This document shows positions 25,495 to 55,639 of a DNA stretch of 64,000 bases, piece by piece. The stretch is from Candidatus Woesearchaeota archaeon (GTDB taxonomy: Archaea > Nanobdellota > Nanobdellia > Pacearchaeales > GW2011-AR1): assembly GCA_964547875.1 (NCBI GenBank), contig CAZJPE010000001.1:176703-240702 (forward strand), read 5' to 3'. Numbering within the stretch: position 1 is the stretch's first letter; every line of letters begins with the position of its first letter. The position numbers and the translations under genes are program-made. The notes under the pieces were generated by a model. The model searched no databases, was not told the DNA's origin, and was given only the letters and a program-made list of their open reading frames with translations.

Positions 25495-25565
25495 GGGCTT
25501 GTAGTCTAAAGGCAAAATATCTCTTTCACATGGAGAAGTTCGAGGTTCAATTCCTCGCAGGCCCA
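25495..25565 (+). tRNA. tRNA-Val (anticodon CAC)
   Basis: Hand fold. Acceptor GGGCTTG/CAGGCCC, anticodon stem TCTCT/GGAGA with loop TTCACAT, T arm CGAGG-TTCAATT-CCTCG, discriminator A. The D stem has one C-A mismatch. No encoded CCA. Confidence 0.78.
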
Positions 25566-48257: not shown

Positions 48258-48482
48258 ATGACTACAAAAGTTGGAGGGGCGGCAGAGGGAAAGAAAAAGG
48301 GCAAGAAACCGCATAAAAATAAGCCGACTGCGAAGAAGTATAAGCATTATATCATTGAAGGAGATAAAGTCAAGCGCGGCAAGTCGTGCCCAAGATGCGG
48401 GCTTGGAATTTTCCTTGCAAATCACAAGAACAGATTGTATTGCGGGAAATGTAGATATACTGAATTTATTAAAATAAGATAA
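48258..48482 (+). CDS. rps27ae: Ribosomal protein S27ae (eS31)
   Basis: CPRCGLGIFLANHKNRLYCGKCRYT zinc ribbon. Confidence 0.9.
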   Translation: MTTKVGGAAEGKKKGKKPHKNKPTAKKYKHYIIEGDKVKRGKSCPRCGLGIFLANHKNRLYCGKCRYTEFIKIR

Positions 48483-48484
48483 AG

Positions 48485-48724
48485 ATGACTTCGATACAAA
48501 AATTAAGATTTGCTTATGAATGTGGAGAGGAAAAAGCAGATTTGATTTATAAGGTGAAATATTATCGGCCTAGAGATTTTAGTCTGCTAGACGATCCTGT
48601 TTACGAGGAGATTTGTCGCAATTTAGCAGAAACTGAAGAAAGGGAGAGACAATATGGATTTTTGGAAAGAATAGCTTTTGGAATAGGCTATTCTTTTGCA
48701 AGAAAATATCAAATCATTTCTTAA
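48485..48724 (+). CDS. Hypothetical protein
   Basis: 79-aa ORF directly after rps27ae. Confidence 0.45.
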   Translation: MTSIQKLRFAYECGEEKADLIYKVKYYRPRDFSLLDDPVYEEICRNLAETEERERQYGFLERIAFGIGYSFARKYQIIS

Positions 48725-49373
48725 ATTGAAGTCTAAATCCTGGATTAAATTGAATAATATCTTTATTATCTAATTGGCATAATGTATTATGTTCAATAAG
48801 TGCTTCAATATTCTCTTTTTGATTTTCTGACATAAAACGATTTAAAAAATAATCCATTCTCATTTCCCATTCTTCAAAACCAATTTCTATTTCTCCTCCA
48901 GTTACTAAAACTCTTTTTTGGGGAGCGTAAAGATCTTTCTCAAGATTTAGTTCTCCATAAGTTTCTCTAAATCTAGATTCAAATATAGGTACTCTTAAGA
49001 GATTAGGAAGTTTTAAACTCTCTCTTTTCAAAAAGCCAATTCTTTTTTCTATATATGTTACAGGAAATGCTTTCATAGAAAGCAATGCTACTGGCAGCCT
49101 TTTCTTTTTCGTCAATACATAACCTCTAAGGTCGCTATCAGGATAAAAGCTTCCCGCACTTAAGGTTCCAGCATAAAATCTTTTATGAAATTCTGCAAGA
49201 AAAACCTCTGGACCATGACTAACCTTACCATGAACATATGGACAAGGTTTTTTATTAGCAAAATCAACTCCAATTACCTCGTATCCTTTCTCAAAATTTA
49301 AATGCATTGGTTCAATTCTTTCATATCTTTCACCAAAAAGATCTTTCGGTGTTTTATCAATTAATCTTGCCAT
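48714..49373 (-). CDS. Hypothetical protein
   Basis: 219-aa ORF. Confidence 0.55.
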   Translation of the reverse strand: MARLIDKTPKDLFGERYERIEPMHLNFEKGYEVIGVDFANKKPCPYVHGKVSHGPEVFLAEFHKRFYAGTLSAGSFYPDSDLRGYVLTKKKRLPVALLSMKAFPVTYIEKRIGFLKRESLKLPNLLRVPIFESRFRETYGELNLEKDLYAPQKRVLVTGGEIEIGFEEWEMRMDYFLNRFMSENQKENIEALIEHNTLCQLDNKDIIQFNPGFRLQFKK

Positions 49374-49433
49374 GGTTTTTACGAGAATGAGTGCTATTTA
49401 AACCTTTTGTTTCTTTATAGTAGTTACAAAATG

Positions 49434-49449
49434 AAAAGATTAATAAATA
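49434..49449 (+). promoter_or_regulatory. Consensus promoter motif aaaagattaataaata
   Basis: ATG at 49471 lies about 25 nt downstream. Confidence 0.4.
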
Positions 49450-49470
49450 CTTCTTTGCCCATTTAAAACC

Positions 49471-49613
49471 ATGACAAAATAAGATTTAATGAGAAATCTA
49501 ATATCAAATATACCGAGGCATTCCTTGATCCGACTACTGGACAACATTCTATTTCAGAACCATCTCAAGAAACTCCTTACACTCCAAGAAGAGGATTAGA
49601 AACAGAGATTTAA
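49471..49613 (+). pseudogene. Small gene (47 aa if repaired) with stop at codon 4 caused by apparent 1-nt loss in an A-run
   Basis: ATG ACA AAA TAA. With A5 instead of A4 the frame reads MTKIRFNEKSNIKYTEAFLDPTTGQHSISEPSQETPYTPRRGLETEI. A promoter motif is present. Confidence 0.35.
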
Positions 49614-49643
49614 TCTCTAAAATTCAATGGTATCTTGTGCGTT

Positions 49644-49877
49644 CTAAATTGAAGAAAAATTAACTTCAAAGGGCAAATTAAGTTCAATGTCTCTAAGAGA
49701 TTTTGTTCTTTTCTTAAAATTAAGAATGCCTATGCCAACTGCCTCATTAGTTTCCTCTTTCTTAAATAAAGTAATATCCTCTCCAATCTCTTCTCCATAA
49801 GTTGGGCTGGCATTGGCTATGAAAATTTCTAAATAATCTGCTTCTTCATCATAATAAATTTGCATTTTACCTTTCAT
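49644..49877 (-). CDS. DUF2283-family small protein (antitoxin-like)
   Basis: MQIYYDEEADYLEIF...EAVGIGILNF. Confidence 0.7.
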   Translation of the reverse strand: MKGKMQIYYDEEADYLEIFIANASPTYGEEIGEDITLFKKEETNEAVGIGILNFKKRTKSLRDIELNLPFEVNFSSI

Positions 49878-50068
49878 CTTAAACTCTTAACAAAATATGA
49901 TGTTATTACATACCCATCTCCATTTAAATATTTAACTACAACTTTTAGATATTTTCCTTTATTTTTATAATATTTGTAAAGATTTATTTTATATTCGTCA
50001 TAAAGACTCTCAATAATTTTGTCAGGTTTAATTAAAGTTTCCTTGACTTCTTCTAAATAATTTGTCAT
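49874..50068 (-). CDS. Small toxin-like partner of DUF2283, apparently 5'-truncated or decayed
   Basis: EEVKETLIKPDKIIES...KYLKVVVKYLNGDGYVITSYF. Upstream in frame, RKIRLTKEQWKHITSLSSPHAH has no start codon. An A5 run at about 50128-50132 separates it from a further upstream coding-like frame (FEFVIKVNGKEVWRGLNPKEK). Confidence 0.5.
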   Translation of the reverse strand: MTNYLEEVKETLIKPDKIIESLYDEYKINLYKYYKNKGKYLKVVVKYLNGDGYVITSYFVKSLR

Positions 50069-50303
50069 ATGTGCGTGTGGAGAACTTAGAGAAGTAATGT
50101 GCTTCCACTGCTCTTTTGTTAATCTAATTTTTCTTTAGGATTTAATCCACGCCAGACTTCTTTCCCATTTACTTTTATTACAAATTCAAATTTCTTTTCA
50201 ATTTTTAAATAAGAACTTTTTAGTTAATAATGTTTTCTGTTATGTTTGTATCGGAAGTAATTTATAAAAAACTTTAAAAATAATAAATGAAGTATAATTT
50301 AAA

Positions 50304-50525
50304 ATGATAGAAAGGCAATTTCTTAAGGAGAGATTAGTTATTTTTGGAAGAGGGGATTTGTTTGGAGAAGCTAATTTACAGGATAAAGATGTGGCAATAG
50401 TTGAAGTGAGATATACACTAAAACGCATTAAAGGAGATAGCGTAGAGAGATTTGGAGGAGCGAGAATTAAAGAACTTTACAAAATAGTTATTCCTTTGGA
50501 TAACAGCAGACTCGCTTGCGGATAA
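50304..50525 (+). CDS. Hypothetical protein
   Basis: 73-aa ORF with TATA-like ctttaaaaataat about 25 nt upstream. Confidence 0.45.
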   Translation: MIERQFLKERLVIFGRGDLFGEANLQDKDVAIVEVRYTLKRIKGDSVERFGGARIKELYKIVIPLDNSRLACG

Positions 50526-50559
50526 AATAGGTTTAAATATTTTCATTCTTTCTATTGTT

Positions 50560-51759
50560 ATGGGATATCTCATAAAAAAGAGGAATCTTTTGCGTTTTAA
50601 TCTTAGCATAAGGAAATTAGCTTTAATAGCGATATTAACAACTTTTTCTGCTGCGCTTATTGATACAATCTGGGCTATTTATCTTGACAGCTATTTGAAC
50701 AGCCTAACTTTGGTTGGTTTTTTCTCTTCTGCTTTAACTTTTATTTCTTTTATCTCATTTTTTTTATTTATACCTATGATTGAAAAAAAGGATAAAGAAA
50801 AGCTTTATATTTTCGCCTTAGTAATTTCAATATTCTCCTATATATTATTTAGTTTTGTTGAAGAAATTAAGGCGATATTTTTTCTTGCTTTGTTATTGAC
50901 ACTTGCTATAAATTTGAGAATATCAAGCTGGGGCATTATTGTAAGAGACAAATCAAAGAGAAAAGAATTAACTAAGAACGAGGGCATTCTTTATACTGTT
51001 TATAATGCCGGCTGGCTTATAGGACCGCCTGTTGCAGGATATATTGCTTCAAGATTTAATTTTAAAGGAGTATTTTTTTCAGCCGCATTGATTTTGTTTA
51101 TAGCGCTTATTTTATTTGTCAGATTCAAGATAAAAGATCACAAGAAGACAAAGCATATTGACGAAAATGTGCTGAAGAATTTTATTGATTTTTTCAAAAG
51201 CAAGGACAGAGTTGTTGCTTATTTATTGGGGGGAGGAGGTAATTTTTGGTGGGTTTTAATTTATCTTTTCATGCCCTTGTACATTGTTAGAGAAGGATTT
51301 GGAATATTTGGACTAAGCATCTTTTTCATGGCTGTGCTTCTGCCATCTGTTCTCTTTGCATATCCATTTGCCAGACTTGCGAGCAAGATAGGACATAAGA
51401 AGATATTTATTACAGGATATGCTGTTCTTAGCGCTGCGACATTGGCTTGTTTTCTTTTGGGTAATATTTACTTAATATTTGCTTTTCTTGTAATTGCGAG
51501 CATAGGCATTTCAATGCTGGAATCAACAACAGAGGCTTATTTCTTTGATATTTCGACAAATGAAGAAGTGTATAGGTTTTTCGCGCCCTTTAACACGAGC
51601 ATTGACGCCAATCATTTAGTTGCCAAGTTTCTTCCTTCTGTTATCCTTATTTTTCTTCCGTTTAGATTTGTCTTTCTATTCTTCGGGATTTTTATGATTG
51701 GATTTTGCGTCTTAGCTACATGGACGAGGAATATTATTGAGGCAAGGAGAAAGGGTTAA
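50560..51759 (+). CDS. MFS-type transporter
   Basis: 399 aa, about 11-12 hydrophobic helices, and a central basic loop. Confidence 0.78.
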   Translation: MGYLIKKRNLLRFNLSIRKLALIAILTTFSAALIDTIWAIYLDSYLNSLTLVGFFSSALTFISFISFFLFIPMIEKKDKEKLYIFALVISIFSYILFSFVEEIKAIFFLALLLTLAINLRISSWGIIVRDKSKRKELTKNEGILYTVYNAGWLIGPPVAGYIASRFNFKGVFFSAALILFIALILFVRFKIKDHKKTKHIDENVLKNFIDFFKSKDRVVAYLLGGGGNFWWVLIYLFMPLYIVREGFGIFGLSIFFMAVLLPSVLFAYPFARLASKIGHKKIFITGYAVLSAATLACFLLGNIYLIFAFLVIASIGISMLESTTEAYFFDISTNEEVYRFFAPFNTSIDANHLVAKFLPSVILIFLPFRFVFLFFGIFMIGFCVLATWTRNIIEARRKG

Positions 51760-51786
51760 TTTAACGTATGCGATTAAGAGAAGTTG

Positions 51787-51875
51787 TTAGGCGACATATT
51801 ACTCAGTGGGCTCGAAAACGATTACGAATATTTTTCTTTCAGAAAAATTAGGGGGTCGGCTCGAAGTCGCCCTAA
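51787..51875 (+). repeat. Repeat element copy X (TTAGGCGA ... GTGGGCTC ... GGGGTCGGC) with self-complementary ends
   Basis: Blocks at 51787-51794, 51806-51813 and 51852-51860. The ends TTAGGCGAC / GTCGCCCTAA (51866-51875) can pair. T-runs follow. Confidence 0.6.
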
Positions 51876-52645
51876 GAGCTTTTATTATTTTTTTCAAGAT
51901 GGAAAGTCAATTCTGTATCAATTTCTAAAGGACGAGTATATGCTATTAATCTTTTATTTGGATTGTCTGTCCCTGATCCAAAATGATGCCAGATTCTCAT
52001 AACTAAACTTTTCCTAATTGCATCTATGTCTTTACCTAAAGATTCATCATAAGAAGCCCCTACTACTTTTCCAGTTATATTATAATGGTCGCTACCTCTT
52101 GGTCTATGAATATCGATTGTTTCGCATTCTAAATGAGCCAAACATTCTTCAATTAATGGGGGATATACTTCGTGTTGTTGTGGGAAAATAAATGGTTTTA
52201 ATTTAGTAAGATTTGCTAATGCAATTTTATCTTTTAATTTATTCCTTGGATATGGTTGTGCAACAATGTCTAACAATCCTGACGCCCATTTTCCCTCACA
52301 ATTACCGTATAGGAGTTCTCTTGGTGGGACATTTACAATAAATAACCCATTTTGTTTTATGTTAAGATAAGTGTTCATTTTCGCATTAGTTGGCTTCTCT
52401 CCATGTGCTACATGCTGTTTTGTTGCACAAGATATTTGTACATAAGGAGGTTCATAACTTGTGTCCAAGCAAGTTGCAAAGGGGGCAATATCGGTTTTTA
52501 ATTCCCCCCCTATTTTACCAATAGTTGTTATAAATTCAACTGGGTGAGTAGTCAAGAGATATTTAGTCCAAGAAGAGGTAACTTGTATTTTAGAGCAGGG
52601 GCTATGAAAATCAAGCCCGGTATCTATTTTATTTATTAATTTCAT
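51872..52645 (-). CDS. Flavin-reductase-like split-barrel protein (tentative)
   Basis: PVEFITTIGKIGGELKTDIAPFATCLDTSYEPPYVQIS resembles the flavin reductase-like domain. The assignment is weak. Confidence 0.5.
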   Translation of the reverse strand: MKLINKIDTGLDFHSPCSKIQVTSSWTKYLLTTHPVEFITTIGKIGGELKTDIAPFATCLDTSYEPPYVQISCATKQHVAHGEKPTNAKMNTYLNIKQNGLFIVNVPPRELLYGNCEGKWASGLLDIVAQPYPRNKLKDKIALANLTKLKPFIFPQQHEVYPPLIEECLAHLECETIDIHRPRGSDHYNITGKVVGASYDESLGKDIDAIRKSLVMRIWHHFGSGTDNPNKRLIAYTRPLEIDTELTFHLEKNNKSS

Positions 52646-52706
52646 AGTAGTAAAACTATGATAAAAGTATTTAAAATGTTGCTGTAAATATTTTACGACA
52701 TATAAT

Positions 52707-52719
52707 AAAGTTTAAATAG
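52707..52719 (+). promoter_or_regulatory. Consensus promoter motif aaagtttaaatag
   Basis: ATG at 52740 lies about 24 nt downstream. Confidence 0.45.
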
Positions 52720-52739
52720 GTTGAACGGGTCTTAACGAT

Positions 52740-53480
52740 ATGGAAATCATAAAAGCTCTTGAAAAATTCGGACTCTCAGAGAAAGAAGCCAAAGTTTATT
52801 TAGCATGTCTTGAATTAGGGGAAGTTACAGCCAGCGATATTTCATTAAAAAGTAATTTGCCTAGAACCCTAATTTATGACATCTTAGAAAGATTAATAGA
52901 CTTGGGATTAATCTCATACGTTGTTAAAAATAATAAAAAATATTTTACTGCTTCAGACCCTCACGAATTGCAAAGGATACTTAAAGAAAAAGAAGTTGAA
53001 ATAGATAAAATTTTACCCGATCTTGAAAATCTTCAAAAAATAAAGGGATTAAAACGACCGAGAGTAGAAATTTATGAAGGAATTGAAGGAATGAAAACAA
53101 TTATGAATAACATTCTAAGGTCAAATGTAAGAGAGTTTTATGCTTACGGGAGTTCCAGATCGTCTTACGAGATAATGCCTGCTTTCATGGATGATTGGCA
53201 TAGGCAAAGAATTAAGAAAAAAGTTATTATGAAAGTATTATATAATAATACAAAACAGGCAAGAGAAAAAGTAAAAAATATTCCAGAAACTTTAAAATAC
53301 GCTGATTATAAGTTTATGCCGATAGAATTAGAGTCACCAACAGCTACATTAATATATGAGAATAAAGTTGTTTTACAATCATGGACAAAAGAACCCTTTG
53401 CGGTACTAATAGAAGATGAAAGAATGGCGGAAAATCAAAAAAGATATTTTGAGGAGTTGTGGAAGATAGCTCAAAACTAA
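52740..53480 (+). CDS. TrmB-family transcriptional regulator
   Basis: LEKFGLSEKEAKVYLACLELGEVTASDISLKSNLPRTLIYDILERLIDLGLI. Confidence 0.85.
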   Translation: MEIIKALEKFGLSEKEAKVYLACLELGEVTASDISLKSNLPRTLIYDILERLIDLGLISYVVKNNKKYFTASDPHELQRILKEKEVEIDKILPDLENLQKIKGLKRPRVEIYEGIEGMKTIMNNILRSNVREFYAYGSSRSSYEIMPAFMDDWHRQRIKKKVIMKVLYNNTKQAREKVKNIPETLKYADYKFMPIELESPTATLIYENKVVLQSWTKEPFAVLIEDERMAENQKRYFEELWKIAQN

Positions 53481-53511
53481 ATATTTATAATAAATCAATC
53501 CTTATGGAATC

Positions 53512-54093
53512 ATGGAAGAAAAAAAGATCGACAAAAGTGATGAGAAAAAGAAGGAAAGAGTTTCAATTTTTATTGATGGAAGTAACCTTTATCATGGTTT
53601 GAAGGTTCTTGGAATTAAGAGAATTGATTTTAATGAATTTACGAAATTACTTGCTGGGGGTAATGAGATAAAAAGAATTTTTTATTATACTGCTAGAATG
53701 GATAGAGCTTTTGATGAACAAAGATTCCTTAAACACCAAAAATTTCTTCGGAAATTATCTTTGATTCCAAAGTTTAAGATAGTTTTTTGTACATTTAAGA
53801 AAATTGTGGAAAAAGACGGGAAAATCAGATATGAAGTTAAGGGAGATGATGTTCAATTAGCAAATGATATGCTTGTAGGGGCCTATGAAGATTTTTATGA
53901 TATTGCAATATTAGTTTCGGGGGATGAAGATTTTAAGCCAGTAGTTCGAACTGTTAAAAGATTAGGAAAAAGAGCTGAAAATATATTTTTTAGAGGAGGA
54001 TCTTCATCTCGTTTAAGAAAAACTTGCAACTCTTCTAAGAATATAAGATTTATTTTAGAAGAATTAAAAAGGCGTCCTGGCATTACAAAGTAA
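53512..54093 (+). CDS. NYN/LabA-like domain protein
   Basis: RVSIFIDGSNLYHGL...DDVQLANDML...ILVSGDEDFKPVVRTVKRLGKR. Confidence 0.8.
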   Translation: MEEKKIDKSDEKKKERVSIFIDGSNLYHGLKVLGIKRIDFNEFTKLLAGGNEIKRIFYYTARMDRAFDEQRFLKHQKFLRKLSLIPKFKIVFCTFKKIVEKDGKIRYEVKGDDVQLANDMLVGAYEDFYDIAILVSGDEDFKPVVRTVKRLGKRAENIFFRGGSSSRLRKTCNSSKNIRFILEELKRRPGITK

Positions 54094-54159
54094 CCCAGGA
54101 CAGTTATTAATATTATAATAATATGCTACTTTAAAAAACCTTCGGTTTGTCAAAAATTT

Positions 54160-54650
54160 TCTTGCCGACCCCACAAAACCCCGAAGATACTTTTGAGCCC
54201 ACCTGCGTGGATACGCAAAATTCTTAGAATTTTTGGGACGCTGCGCTCTCATTTCATTCGCCCTCGCCTAATAGACATTTACAGGAAAATGCCTCAGCTC
54301 GGCATTTTGCCCAAATTTGCATTTTTCAAGATAGTTCGCTTTGCTCAAAATAATATTGCAAACTTCTCTAAATCGCATACGTTTGCAGTAACTTTAATAC
54401 AATAATGAGCAAACAATTTTGGTTAATTTCTGGTTTTAGACTCATCTGTGATTTCCCTTTTTCGTAAGAAAAAGGCATCAACCTGAACAATTCGGATACT
54501 CTCCTTCATTTTCAGCCAAAAAGGCTTTACTTCAACCGAAAGGAGATTTGAAGAATTGTTTTTATATAAACCCTTAGAGAGGAGGCCCAATCTTATTAAC
54601 TAGATAGATTGAACGTCCTCTCCCGGGCAAAAAGAGGTGATAATATTTAA
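54160..54650. ncRNA. Candidate structured noncoding RNA locus (class unknown)
   Basis: At least nine perfect or near-perfect stems of 6-8 bp within about 450 nt. The strongest are 54296-54318, 54350-54357/54416-54423, 54367-54397, 54466-54485 (GTAA loop), 54540-54563 and 54581-54637. There are local GC-rich patches, no credible ORF, and a promoter motif at 54672-54687 (-) aimed into the locus. Confidence 0.4.
54174..54281 (-). repeat. Repeat element copy Y (same three blocks as X, inverted orientation, with insertions)
   Basis: Minus-strand blocks: TTAGGCGA (54281-54274), GTGGGCTC (54212-54205), GGGGTCGGC (54182-54174). Order and orientation match X. Confidence 0.6.
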
Positions 54651-54671
54651 TGCATATTGAAGTATTTAAAT

Positions 54672-54687
54672 CTTTCGTTTTGTTGTA
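54672..54687 (-). promoter_or_regulatory. Consensus promoter motif (cgaaagatttaaatac on minus strand) with no protein-coding ORF downstream
   Basis: Full match to the motif used by protein genes. The predicted start is near 54650, reading leftwards. Confidence 0.45.
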
Positions 54688-54756
54688 ACTTCTTAATAAG
54701 CACATTAACTTTTTACATCTTTTGCATTGTGTTTTGATTATACGAACTTCGTAGCT

Positions 54757-54790: not shown

Positions 54791-55639
54791 ATGGATAAAA
54801 ATAGCGAGAGCATTCAGCATAAAAATTTGAGCCAGAGAATAGGACAGGAGCAGATTCACGGCTTGCTTTTTAGCGACAAATTGAGCTGGCAGTCTATAAT
54901 TTATGATTTAATTAACACTGAACAGCTGGATCCGTGGGACGTTGATATCTGCTTATTGGCAAATAAGTATTTAGAGAAGATAAAAGAACTTGAAGAGGCG
55001 AATTTTTTTATGTCCAGCAAAGTTTTATTGGCTGCTTCTTTGCTGTTGAGAATTAAATCAGAGATTTTATTGAATTATTATATTCCTGGCTTGGACGATA
55101 TATTATTTGGCAAGGAAGAGAAGAAGAATTATGTGCAGGAAAGAATTGAATTAGACGACGAGATTCCTGAATTAATTCCAAGAACGCCCTTGCCAAGAGT
55201 AAGAAAAGTGACATTGCATGAATTGATGAGTGCTTTGGGAAAGGCTATTAAGACAGAGACAAGAAGAATTAAAAGGATTGTTGTTGACAGGCAGAGGGAA
55301 TTTGATACTATGGCGGTAATTCCAAGAAAAAGCATTGACTTAAAGGCGCAGATAATAGTTTTATATAAGAAATTAAAAGACTATTTTTTAAAAAATAAAG
55401 ATGAAAAAATAGCTTTTTCAAGTTTTTGCGATAAGAAAGGCAAGGAGAAGATATTTCATTTTTTACCTTTATTGTATTTGGACAATCAGCATAGGATTTT
55501 GCTTGAGCAGGAAAATCATTTTGACGAGATTTGGATATGGCTGAAACACATACATGACAAAAAGCACGCTGATATTTTAGAGGCTGCGAGGAGAGAGGTT
55601 GAGGAAGCGATGAATAGGGAAGATGTTGAAGGAGAATAA
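54791..55639 (+). CDS. scpA: Segregation and condensation protein A (kleisin)
   Basis: LDPWDVDICLLANKYLEKIKELEEANFFMSSKVLLAASLLLRIKSE. Confidence 0.85.
   Translation: MDKNSESIQHKNLSQRIGQEQIHGLLFSDKLSWQSIIYDLINTEQLDPWDVDICLLANKYLEKIKELEEANFFMSSKVLLAASLLLRIKSEILLNYYIPGLDDILFGKEEKKNYVQERIELDDEIPELIPRTPLPRVRKVTLHELMSALGKAIKTETRRIKRIVVDRQREFDTMAVIPRKSIDLKAQIIVLYKKLKDYFLKNKDEKIAFSSFCDKKGKEKIFHFLPLLYLDNQHRILLEQENHFDEIWIWLKHIHDKKHADILEAARREVEEAMNREDVEGE

Follow-up and report, generated by a model that had tools for sequence, protein, structure and literature searches.

The DNA considered here is a window of 64,000 nt (G000:C1:176703-240702) from an archaeal genome of 947,600 bases in 13 contigs with 33% G+C, in which a gap of 697 nt separates an NYN-domain gene from scpA. 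For this gap, an earlier note made from the letters alone had proposed a hairpin-dense noncoding RNA (ncRNA) of about 490 nt. What is found instead appears to be a set of distinct elements: a stand-alone gene for a 76-nt RNA, hereafter small RNA 1 (sRNA-1), on the scpA side; a copy of a dispersed repeat resembling the attC sites of integrons on the NYN side; a spacer between the two; and a further small module at the end of the NYN gene (Table 1). In the following, G### labels denote genomes (G000 being that of the window), C# contigs, and L### loci. As the earlier note had it, the gap holds no credible open reading frame (ORF): six local ORFs lack a match to any Pfam family (two reach chance level, E ~0.05), and homologous repeat modules sit in noncoding DNA in other genomes. 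All stem and promoter strings quoted in that note are present, but nearly all of their positions were given about 10 nt too high.

Table 1. Features in and around the gap between the NYN-domain gene and scpA, in window positions
Feature	Position	Strand	Basis or remark
Truncated inverted repeat copy (GCCGACCCC .. TTTCGAGCCCAC .. GCCTAAC-AACTTC-TCTTAATCGC-ATAC-GTTAAAT)	51763-51870	minus	
NYN-domain gene	53512-54093	plus	Pfam NYN, 9e-23
Separate module: BRE/TATA, hairpin, U5 run	54062-54145	minus	outside the coordinates of the proposed 490-nt RNA
ctttaaaaaa	start 54129		
Repeat, 5' extension: CCTGCG, hairpin AAAATTC/GAATTTT, GGGACGCTGCGCTCTC, ..CGCC	54196-54267	plus	blocks recur upstream of most copies
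TGCGT	start 54204		54214 in the earlier note
AAAATTCT	start 54217		54227 in the earlier note
Repeat, core: one copy of the dispersed attC-like repeat	54268-54386	plus	covariance model R2, 112 bits
Stem AAAATGCC/GGCATTTT	54286-54308		
TTTGCTCA	start 54340		
TGCAAAC	start 54357		
GTTTGCA	start 54381		
Spacer with local hairpins and repeat fragments	54387-54566	none	unconserved beyond the genus
TGAGCAAA	start 54406		
CCTTTTTCGTAAGAAAAAGG	54456-54475		
CTTCAA/TTGAAG	starts 54530/54548		
sRNA-1, stand-alone RNA gene of 76 nt	54567-54642	minus	covariance model R1, 90.2 bits, E = 1e-22
sRNA-1 hairpin	54571-54627	minus	minimum free energy, covariation, G·U bias
GAGAGGA/TCCTCTC	starts 54577/54616		
CAATCT/AGATTG	starts 54588/54606		
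Single-stranded 5' tail of sRNA-1, AUCACCUCUUUUU, 13 nt	54629-54641	minus	invariant columns
sRNA-1 promoter, CGAAAG-ATTTAAATAC	54662-54677	minus	BRE/TATA
Promoter string of the earlier note, cgaaagatttaaatac	54677 to 54662	minus	
scpA	54791-55639		Pfam SMC_ScpA

The sRNA-1 gene and its range

A BLAST comparison of the gap with 60 relatives brings out one conserved segment: members of the genus share 80-88% identity over 54565-54723, and across the order 75-82% remains over 54617-54697. On the minus strand, this segment consists of a transcription factor B recognition element and TATA box (BRE/TATA), a variable 21-nt spacer, UAUCACCUCUUUUU, a hairpin, and GGGUUU. The promoter is the full-consensus one described earlier, and it drives sRNA-1. 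Over 180 distinct loci the upstream consensus is AAcCGAAAGaTTTAAATA, and in 139 of them exactly 21 nt separate the end of the TATA 8-mer from the A of AUCACC. Given that 21 nt is the usual archaeal spacing from TATA to start, the predicted +1 is A54641, close to where a leftward transcript had been expected to begin (near 54650); the predicted 3' end lies at GGGUUU(A), where only 3-4 U residues follow the GGG. Within the tail, CACCUCUUU is invariant and stays unpaired in the consensus folds.

The hairpin, which had been noticed before as a composite of two stems, is built on an invariant CCC/GGG clamp and a 1x2 internal loop (R opposite N-A), has a purine-rich 5' strand, and carries distally a variable stem and a U-rich apical loop (AUCUnUUU). 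Its minimum free energy is -29.4 kcal/mol (z = -4.3; 0/200 shuffles as good), while z for the other 407 nt (54160-54566) is -2.0 when folded as the minus strand and -0.9 as the plus strand; folding beyond chance is thereby seen for only part of the locus. RNAalifold applied to a MAFFT alignment of 17 homologues returns 19 pairs, 12 of them with compensatory changes. The R1 alignment of 43 distinct sequences is fitted to the model and so favours structure, and the MAFFT-based result agrees with it: 94.1% of cells are paired (shuffled mean 79.5%), 14 of the 19 pairs have changed on both sides, and double-change cells number 122 against a shuffled mean of 33. In 500 shuffles these values are never attained, and when the 3' partners are slid, pairing falls to 58% or less.

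The strand, left ambiguous in the earlier note, is decided by the wobble pairs. On the minus-strand reading, 88 G·U pairs stand against 6 A·C (27 against 1 in the class-level set), which argues for selection on a minus-strand RNA rather than on a DNA palindrome. The clues that had pointed to the plus strand do not hold: both GNRA loops fall in the unconserved spacer, and ctttaaaaaa, once taken for a weak TATA box, is better read as the reverse complement of CCGAAGG-TTTTTTAAAG, the minus-strand BRE/TATA of the separate module at the NYN end. A small plus-strand ORF (Shine-Dalgarno (SD) sequence GAGGTGAT, then ATG) is not conserved in relatives and was discarded. Judged by conservation, covariation and strand bias, sRNA-1 is very probably a real structured RNA gene.

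The expectation of a novel structured RNA at the locus is thus borne out by sRNA-1 and its covarying hairpin, at some 76 nt instead of 490. A single hairpin-rich ncRNA of the larger size, extending from the promoter to the U5 tract on its left near 54165, would agree with the orientation of the promoter, the 3-4 U residues at the end of sRNA-1 leave read-through possible, and the minus strand of 54160-54566 folds slightly better than its shuffles, as given above. Such a transcript is nevertheless very improbable, given that outside the genus conservation ends at 54567, that the downstream modules are found without sRNA-1 in other genomes and contigs, that several of the listed stems are absent from homologous copies, and that most relatives have a ribosomal-protein operon 0.4-1.5 kb downstream instead. 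The stems outside sRNA-1 belong to unrelated, sporadic repeat modules that occur in other genomes without the sRNA-1 promoter. Comparison with relatives supports the composite hairpin and AAAATGCC/GGCATTTT, which is stem P2 of the repeat, and weakly supports TGCGT/ACGCA and AAAATTCT/AGAATTTT, whereas the TTTGCTCA/TGAGCAAA and TGCAAAC/GTTTGCA stems are not retained; the conserved partner of TGCAAA is TTTGCA at 54316, not GTTTGCA.

Decay of a protein-coding gene, named in the earlier note as what would overturn a structured RNA, is scarcely credible. ORFs of 36-79 aa do occur on both strands, but Pfam yields chance-level matches only (E ~0.05) and no family, coding-like conservation is missing, homologous modules lie outside long ORFs in other genomes, and tblastx against G012 is coding-like over the NYN gene only. 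With moderate confidence, the locus as a whole can be read as a composite of unrelated things, namely sRNA-1, a solitary attC-like repeat, and a lineage-specific spacer. Fragments of it recur (54381-54437 in four other genera, 54432-54489 in G002); the conservation of 54387-54566 reaches the genus at most.

In the order, which comprises Pacearchaeota-type metagenome-assembled genomes (MAGs), R1 detects sRNA-1 in 194/201 genomes at E <=1e-3, usually as one copy, including 74/76 high-quality genomes and 98/100 genera. In wider samples, 84/201 genomes of a class sample and 186/251 genomes (146/193 genera) of a phylum sample (>=85% complete, E <=1e-4) are positive, and a pattern scan of named genomes finds matches in MAGs labelled Pacearchaeota, Woesearchaeota or Nanoarchaeota. 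For comparison, 5S rRNA is found in 28/31 close relatives, and the prevalence of sRNA-1 within the order is similar to this. sRNA-1 is a core gene of the GTDB phylum Nanoarchaeota (Pacearchaeota/Woesearchaeota-type DPANN), usually single-copy; the archaeon of the window belongs to this phylum too. A viral origin was considered and dropped, with only 4 matches among 2.9 million IMG/VR contigs.

Outside the order, the gene mostly takes a short form of about 50 nt with the same tail, clamp and promoter spacing, in which UAUCACCUCUUUUU-CCCCAG is followed by a stem of 8-10 bp with a tetraloop and then by CCAGGGUUUA. Tandem duplicates about 60-80 nt apart are also seen there: L201 (G253:C5:57074-57199), G613:C5:19760/19820, G638:C2:302493/302552, and G527:C28:6803/6859. 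The copies at L190, L199 and L201 have no canonical BRE/TATA at -22 and carry instead a 5' extension whose UGGGGG may be able to pair with the clamp CCCC.

The genomic context bears on whether the segment acts as a free RNA at all. Among 170 loci, a divergent ScpA gene lies upstream of sRNA-1 in 137, at a median distance of 165 nt, and the convergent genes downstream are those for S24e (83 loci), Rpo7/RpoE' (65) and S27ae (19); in Pacearchaeales, sRNA-1 sits between a divergent scpA and a convergent rpoE'-rps24e-rps27ae operon. Same-strand downstream genes differ from locus to locus and none recurs, so sRNA-1 is not a leader, and a riboswitch or leader of the downstream gene is ruled out on the same ground. 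Outside the order, ScpA is divergent in 3/19 loci and lies within ~2 kb in 2 more, while in 14/19 no ScpA gene is found within ~2.5 kb and the neighbours are others, for example a Lon-like protease. The conserved segment might then be a cis-acting element, either a promoter-plus-terminator insulator or a DNA site tied to scpA (e.g., for SMC-ScpA loading or regulation), for which the divergent scpA, strong in the order and seen in a few loci beyond it, can be cited. This is improbable: the 88:6 ratio of G·U to A·C shows that what has been selected is the RNA of one strand instead of a palindrome in the DNA, the invariant tail follows the transcription start, and most loci outside the order have no ScpA gene nearby. 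A functional tie to scpA is likewise rejected on the 3/19 count, and the synteny is probably inherited gene order.

The earlier suggestion that the RNA is neither RNase P nor signal recognition particle (SRP) RNA holds. An Rfam scan, which the earlier note had proposed, gives nothing at the locus at gathering thresholds and only chance-level matches at E up to 10, and the genome has both RNAs elsewhere: archaeal RNase P RNA (RF00373) at C2:169026-169356 with 110.5 bits, and, as the best genomic match to archaeal SRP RNA (RF01857), C5:45752-46013 with 80.8 bits and E = 7e-19. The latter candidate, 262 nt long and below the Rfam gathering score of 96.5, may be a reduced SRP RNA. 5S rRNA (RF00001) lies at C2:3999-4113, and ARAGORN and Rfam place the tRNAs of the window only at 25495 and 63036. 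A C/D box sRNA should have a C box (RUGAUGA) near the 5' end, a D box (CUGA) near the 3' end, and C'/D' copies; neither TGATGA nor CTGA occurs in the 76-nt sequence of the window, no such boxes stand out when the homologues are read by eye, and the snoRNA matches in the Rfam E-value scan are chance-level only and fall in the promoter and spacer. An archaeal H/ACA sRNA, defined by an ACA box 3' of a hairpin, a large internal pseudouridylation pocket, and a K-turn or K-loop, is excluded as well, as the 3' end is GGGUUU(A/U) instead of ACA and the helix is continuous save for the 1x2 loop, with no pocket; the short form is just a stem with its tetraloop. Neither the long form at the locus nor the short-form loci outside the order have an Rfam match. 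Nothing relevant to the tail sequence or to ncRNAs of DPANN archaea was found in the literature searched, and the paper on the Nanoarchaeum equitans RNome describes no such RNA among those it reports; as far as can be told, the family is undescribed so far.

Possible roles of sRNA-1

The first 8 nt of the tail are identical to the terminal AUCACCUC of 16S rRNA. In both RNAs this sequence is single-stranded and stands beside a hairpin, but the order is reversed: in 16S rRNA (...GGAUCACCUCCU-3'), hairpin h45 precedes the 3' tail, whereas in sRNA-1 the 5' tail precedes the hairpin. A fragmented 16S rRNA receiving its anti-SD sequence in trans was considered and rejected, since intact 16S genes end in GGATCACCTCCT in 6/8 relatives examined; with 16S rRNA carrying its own tail, sRNA-1 would be a mimic and not a missing rRNA piece. 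In G000 itself, no 16S or 23S rRNA signature motif occurs in the 13 contigs, although the 5S, RNase P and SRP RNAs are present, and the large rRNA genes are most likely missing because they were not binned.

The favoured function would be that of a seed-plus-hairpin riboregulator acting on SD-like purine tracts, or of a decoy that draws off factors binding to the 16S 3' end. The invariant tail could serve as a copy of the anti-SD end of 16S rRNA extended by U5, an extension able to pair with A or G, such that up to 13 pairs could form in trans with purine-rich SD-type sequences (RRRRRGAGGUGAU). Pairing of the tail with mRNA would compete with the 30S subunit, and the hairpin, with its invariant CCC/GGG base, together with the U-run would provide stability, termination and a handle for proteins. 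Several features expected of a trans-acting sRNA are found here: a promoter of its own at a fixed 21 nt, an arrangement that is not that of a leader, and a conserved single-stranded seed. In G000, the stretch from -3 to -20 contains AAGAGG in 34 genes (control window: 3) and GAGGTG in 11 (control window: 0). Pairing of the tail at -9 kcal/mol or better is predicted for 66/794 upstream regions against 13 when shuffled, and the same count for the 16S tail itself is 54 of 794. Upstream of starts in this genome, AAGAGG(UG) is more frequent than GGAGG.

Several observations weigh against this function. Only ~8% of the 794 G000 genes (long ORFs) have a strong SD-like match, and for the remaining ~92% none was detected, some of which may be leaderless. 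One base separates the tail from 16S rRNA (CCUCU vs CCUCC). No specific target of the tail was found, nor a conserved complement in 16S, RNase P or SRP RNA. Action by pairing with SD-type sequences is, on the evidence of base complementarity, a tentative proposal.

A serious rival is that sRNA-1 binds proteins, as a decoy or scaffold for factors of the 16S 3' end (Dim2/Pno1-type KH proteins, Nob1) or for U5-binding Sm-like proteins, and would then have a part in the maturation of the small subunit or in RNA turnover. In archaea, Dim2p binds GGAUCACCUCC, and Sm-like archaeal proteins (SmAPs) bind oligo-U; the tail has 8 nt in common with the 16S 3' end. Neither the CCC/GGG clamp nor the bulged A varies or covaries, which points to protein recognition, and the near-universal, single-copy distribution is housekeeping-like and comparable to that of 5S rRNA. 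However, the GG that precedes AUCACC in 16S rRNA is missing from sRNA-1, and no linked gene for such a protein occurs among the sRNA-1 neighbourhoods examined. Binding of this kind is likewise a tentative proposal, of rather low probability.

Like known trans-acting sRNAs of bacteria and archaea in which a pyrimidine-rich, anti-SD-like seed stands before a terminator hairpin, such as RsaE/RoxS and the C-rich loops of RNAIII, sRNA-1 has a short gene that stands alone behind its own promoter, an unpaired C/U-rich stretch complementary to the SD sequence, and a stable 3' hairpin followed by a U-run. It differs in that its seed lies at the extreme 5' end as a literal 8-nt copy of the 16S terminus, is invariant across the phylum, and is present in essentially single copy in nearly every genome while being absent from Rfam. 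Such invariance and near-universal single-copy presence make it look like a housekeeping rather than an accessory RNA. Archaeal sRNAs have been reviewed (PMC4152357).

If sRNA-1 were a free-standing mimic of the 16S 3' end, essential, ribosome-related and phylum-wide, it might act as a global governor of translation through SD competition or as a titrant of 16S 3'-end factors; this, too, is a possibility to be held lightly. It would then join the very few housekeeping RNAs that are near-universal in a major archaeal lineage. DPANN archaea have genomes of 0.5-1.5 Mb and have lost most non-essential functions, and sRNA-1 has been retained in these reduced genomes with an invariant 13-nt end and a strong consensus promoter. 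With a literal anti-SD copy at its 5' end, it gives rise to a concrete hypothesis on translation control or small-subunit maturation in organisms that are hard to culture, one that is testable with synthetic RNA and heterologous ribosomes. In addition, sRNA-1 is usable as a new marker gene for annotating such MAGs.

The attC-like repeat and its arrays

The core of the repeat, 80-140 nt long, has a constant order of parts (WTAAC.., a variable 5' box, P2, CCCAAATT, P3, AACTTC, a complementary 3' box, ..GTT). The full site begins with ..CTCTGCG, a hairpin, and CACGCTGCGCTCTC .. TCGGG-nnnn, continues with WTAACA-G-(9-10 nt box)-GG, hairpin P2, CCCAAATT and hairpin P3, and closes with AACTTC-(complementary box)-CGA-TGTTAnnn-CAATTT; blocks of the 5' extension are also seen in G012 and G009. 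Among the 201 genomes of the order, 62 carry 1-5+ copies, often at contig ends or in clusters 0.5-5 kb apart, and the significant copies (E <=0.05) of every cluster are co-oriented and separated by one to a few small ORFs. The box helix (9-11 bp) is 87.9% paired with 86 double-change cells, which none of 500 shuffles equals, and slid controls stay at or below 56%. MAFFT and RNAalifold recover the outer helix only, and P2 and P3 were read by eye from the alignments. Some copies are hybrids, their 5' and 3' boxes being of different types; the copy in the window is one of these and solitary as well (GACATTTACAG vs CTCTAAATCGC, 8/11 box pairs).

At the head of the arrays stands a tyrosine recombinase of 267-275 aa on the opposite strand, found in 4/5 arrays with a captured head. 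These enzymes match Phage_integrase and Phage_int_SAM_4 in Pfam and score 229-234 bits with the NCBIfam model NF040815 (XerA / integron integrase; cut-off 220). The arrays headed by XerA-type recombinases are L266, L268, L269 and L272 (G195:C6, G121:C10, G011:C1:368-392 kb, and G174:C31); that of G011 holds at least 6 repeat sites within 24 kb. TrmB-like genes recur among the cassette genes.

The repeat can be compared with attC sites feature by feature. Like attC, it is an imperfect palindrome whose structure is kept while its sequence is not; the inner box covaries, and the centre is variable. At least two co-oriented sites less than 4 kb apart around short ORFs are found in relatives (L266-L273, L277), although the window has just one full copy and a truncated inverted copy 2.4 kb away. 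Of the attC ends R'' and R' (RYYYAAC, GTTRRRY), AAC and GTT are nearly universal (WTAACA ... TGTTA), and the full 7-mers occur in many copies but not in all (GCCCAAC, ACTTAAC and GTTTAAC; GTTAAAT), the window copy having GCCTAAT and GTTTGCA. With attC sites and clusters of attC sites lacking integron integrases (CALINs), the repeat further shares co-oriented arrays between short cassettes, copies that are similar at the order level, a divergent tyrosine recombinase gene at the array head, and cargo of toxin-antitoxin and nuclease type. It differs in the hybrid sites among its copies and in the recombinase, which is XerA-type and without the IntI-specific insert; the IntI with an additional domain that marks a complete integron is not what the array heads encode. 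Integrons have been reported from archaea, Nanoarchaeota among them, and most of these are attC arrays that have no integrase (Ghaly et al. 2022, PMC9668308).

Given the co-oriented arrays, the head recombinase and the archaeal integrons already reported, the repeat is read as an attC-like site served by a XerA-type enzyme. The array architecture is directly visible, and recombination at the repeat would be its explanation; from these sequence features, the repeat is probably a recombinase site. Against this stand the four G000 copies (the window, C7:13914, C2:99301 and C4:99452), which are all solitary, the two XerA-type genes of that genome (C6, C8), neither of which is beside a repeat copy, and the size of the repeat, which with its 5' extension reaches ~170-200 nt, larger than a classical attC, and has a branched centre. 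In addition, the integron integrase model TIGR02249 reaches only 180-214 bits with the head recombinases (cut-off 265), in two stretches that skip profile positions ~180-236, from which it follows that the IntI-specific insert is missing.

The repeat might instead be a functional structured RNA in its own right (a mobile or multi-copy ncRNA) or a miniature inverted-repeat transposable element (MITE). Three covarying helices around the conserved junctions CCCAAAUU and AACUUC would suit an RNA, and the G432 variant makes a G·U on the minus-strand reading; a search of Rfam with the better copies found nothing relevant, leaving the repeat without a match to any known family. However, a recombination site accounts better for the co-oriented arrays, their cassette-sized spacing and the tyrosine recombinase at their head; the hybrid 5'/3' boxes look like recombination products, and the copies are diverged, unlike those of a recently amplified MITE. 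Neither alternative is likely.

An attC-like site served by a XerA-type enzyme also invites comparison with XerA/dif, with integrative mobile elements exploiting Xer (IMEX), and with pdif modules, which share the recombinase family (NF040815 above its cut-off) and short modules bounded by recombinase sites. Whereas dif is a single 28-bp duplex site per chromosome, the repeat forms many long hairpin-forming sites in arrays. Arrays with a plain XerA-type enzyme suggest that integron-like capture may run on the family of the chromosome-dimer resolvase rather than on a dedicated IntI, and Xer-driven capture would explain the scattered TrmB-, NYN- and toxin-antitoxin-type cassettes in such genomes. 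Two copies, C7:13914-14031 and L017 (G012), are found at 70-400 nt from a tRNA gene that faces the repeat with its 3' end, and the C7 one directly adjoins the promoter of an AbrB-type (antitoxin-like) gene.

The NYN gene and its surroundings

In the window, two inverted copies of the repeat (51763-51870 and 54165-54386) bracket a flavin-reductase-like gene on the minus strand and TrmB and NYN genes on the plus strand, and the TrmB/NYN block may be cargo of the attC-like site. The left copy is truncated, with GCCTAAC joined directly to AACTTC..GTTAAAT, and the right copy is the 5'/3' hybrid; the junction of the left copy might be a recombination scar, or the block might be an invertible segment. 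The NYN gene and the region downstream are shared with the genus of G012, in a different genomic context.

The rpoE'-spt4-rps24e-rps27ae operon of the window ends at 48482, from which it appears that ~6 kb of accessory genes have been inserted between the operon and sRNA-1, which are adjacent in most relatives. The genes in 48483-54566 comprise a 219-aa and a 77-aa ORF (no known function for either), a large multi-pass membrane protein, and the flavin reductase, TrmB and NYN genes. In G161, a copy of the attC-like repeat lies 245 nt downstream of sRNA-1; given this and the insertion in the window, the 3' flank of sRNA-1 may be a preferred place of insertion.

The small module at the NYN gene end consists of a minus-strand BRE/TATA (the reverse complement of 54129-54145, CTTTAAAAAACCTTCGG), a spacer of ~20 nt, ATTAATAACTG, a hairpin that covaries and covers the NYN stop codon or 3' untranslated region (54074-54101 in the window, across the stop codon), and a U-run, here of U5. 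It is found at NYN gene ends in at least 4 genomes (the window's own, L017, L217 and L219) and follows the NYN genes of G012, G003 and G059 with a compensated stem. It may encode a candidate antisense RNA of ~45 nt to the nuclease mRNA, or may be a bidirectional terminator of the NYN cassette. A second copy in the same genome lies at C1:54888, and one of the copies of this genome provides an unrelated ORF with its C-terminus and stop codon.

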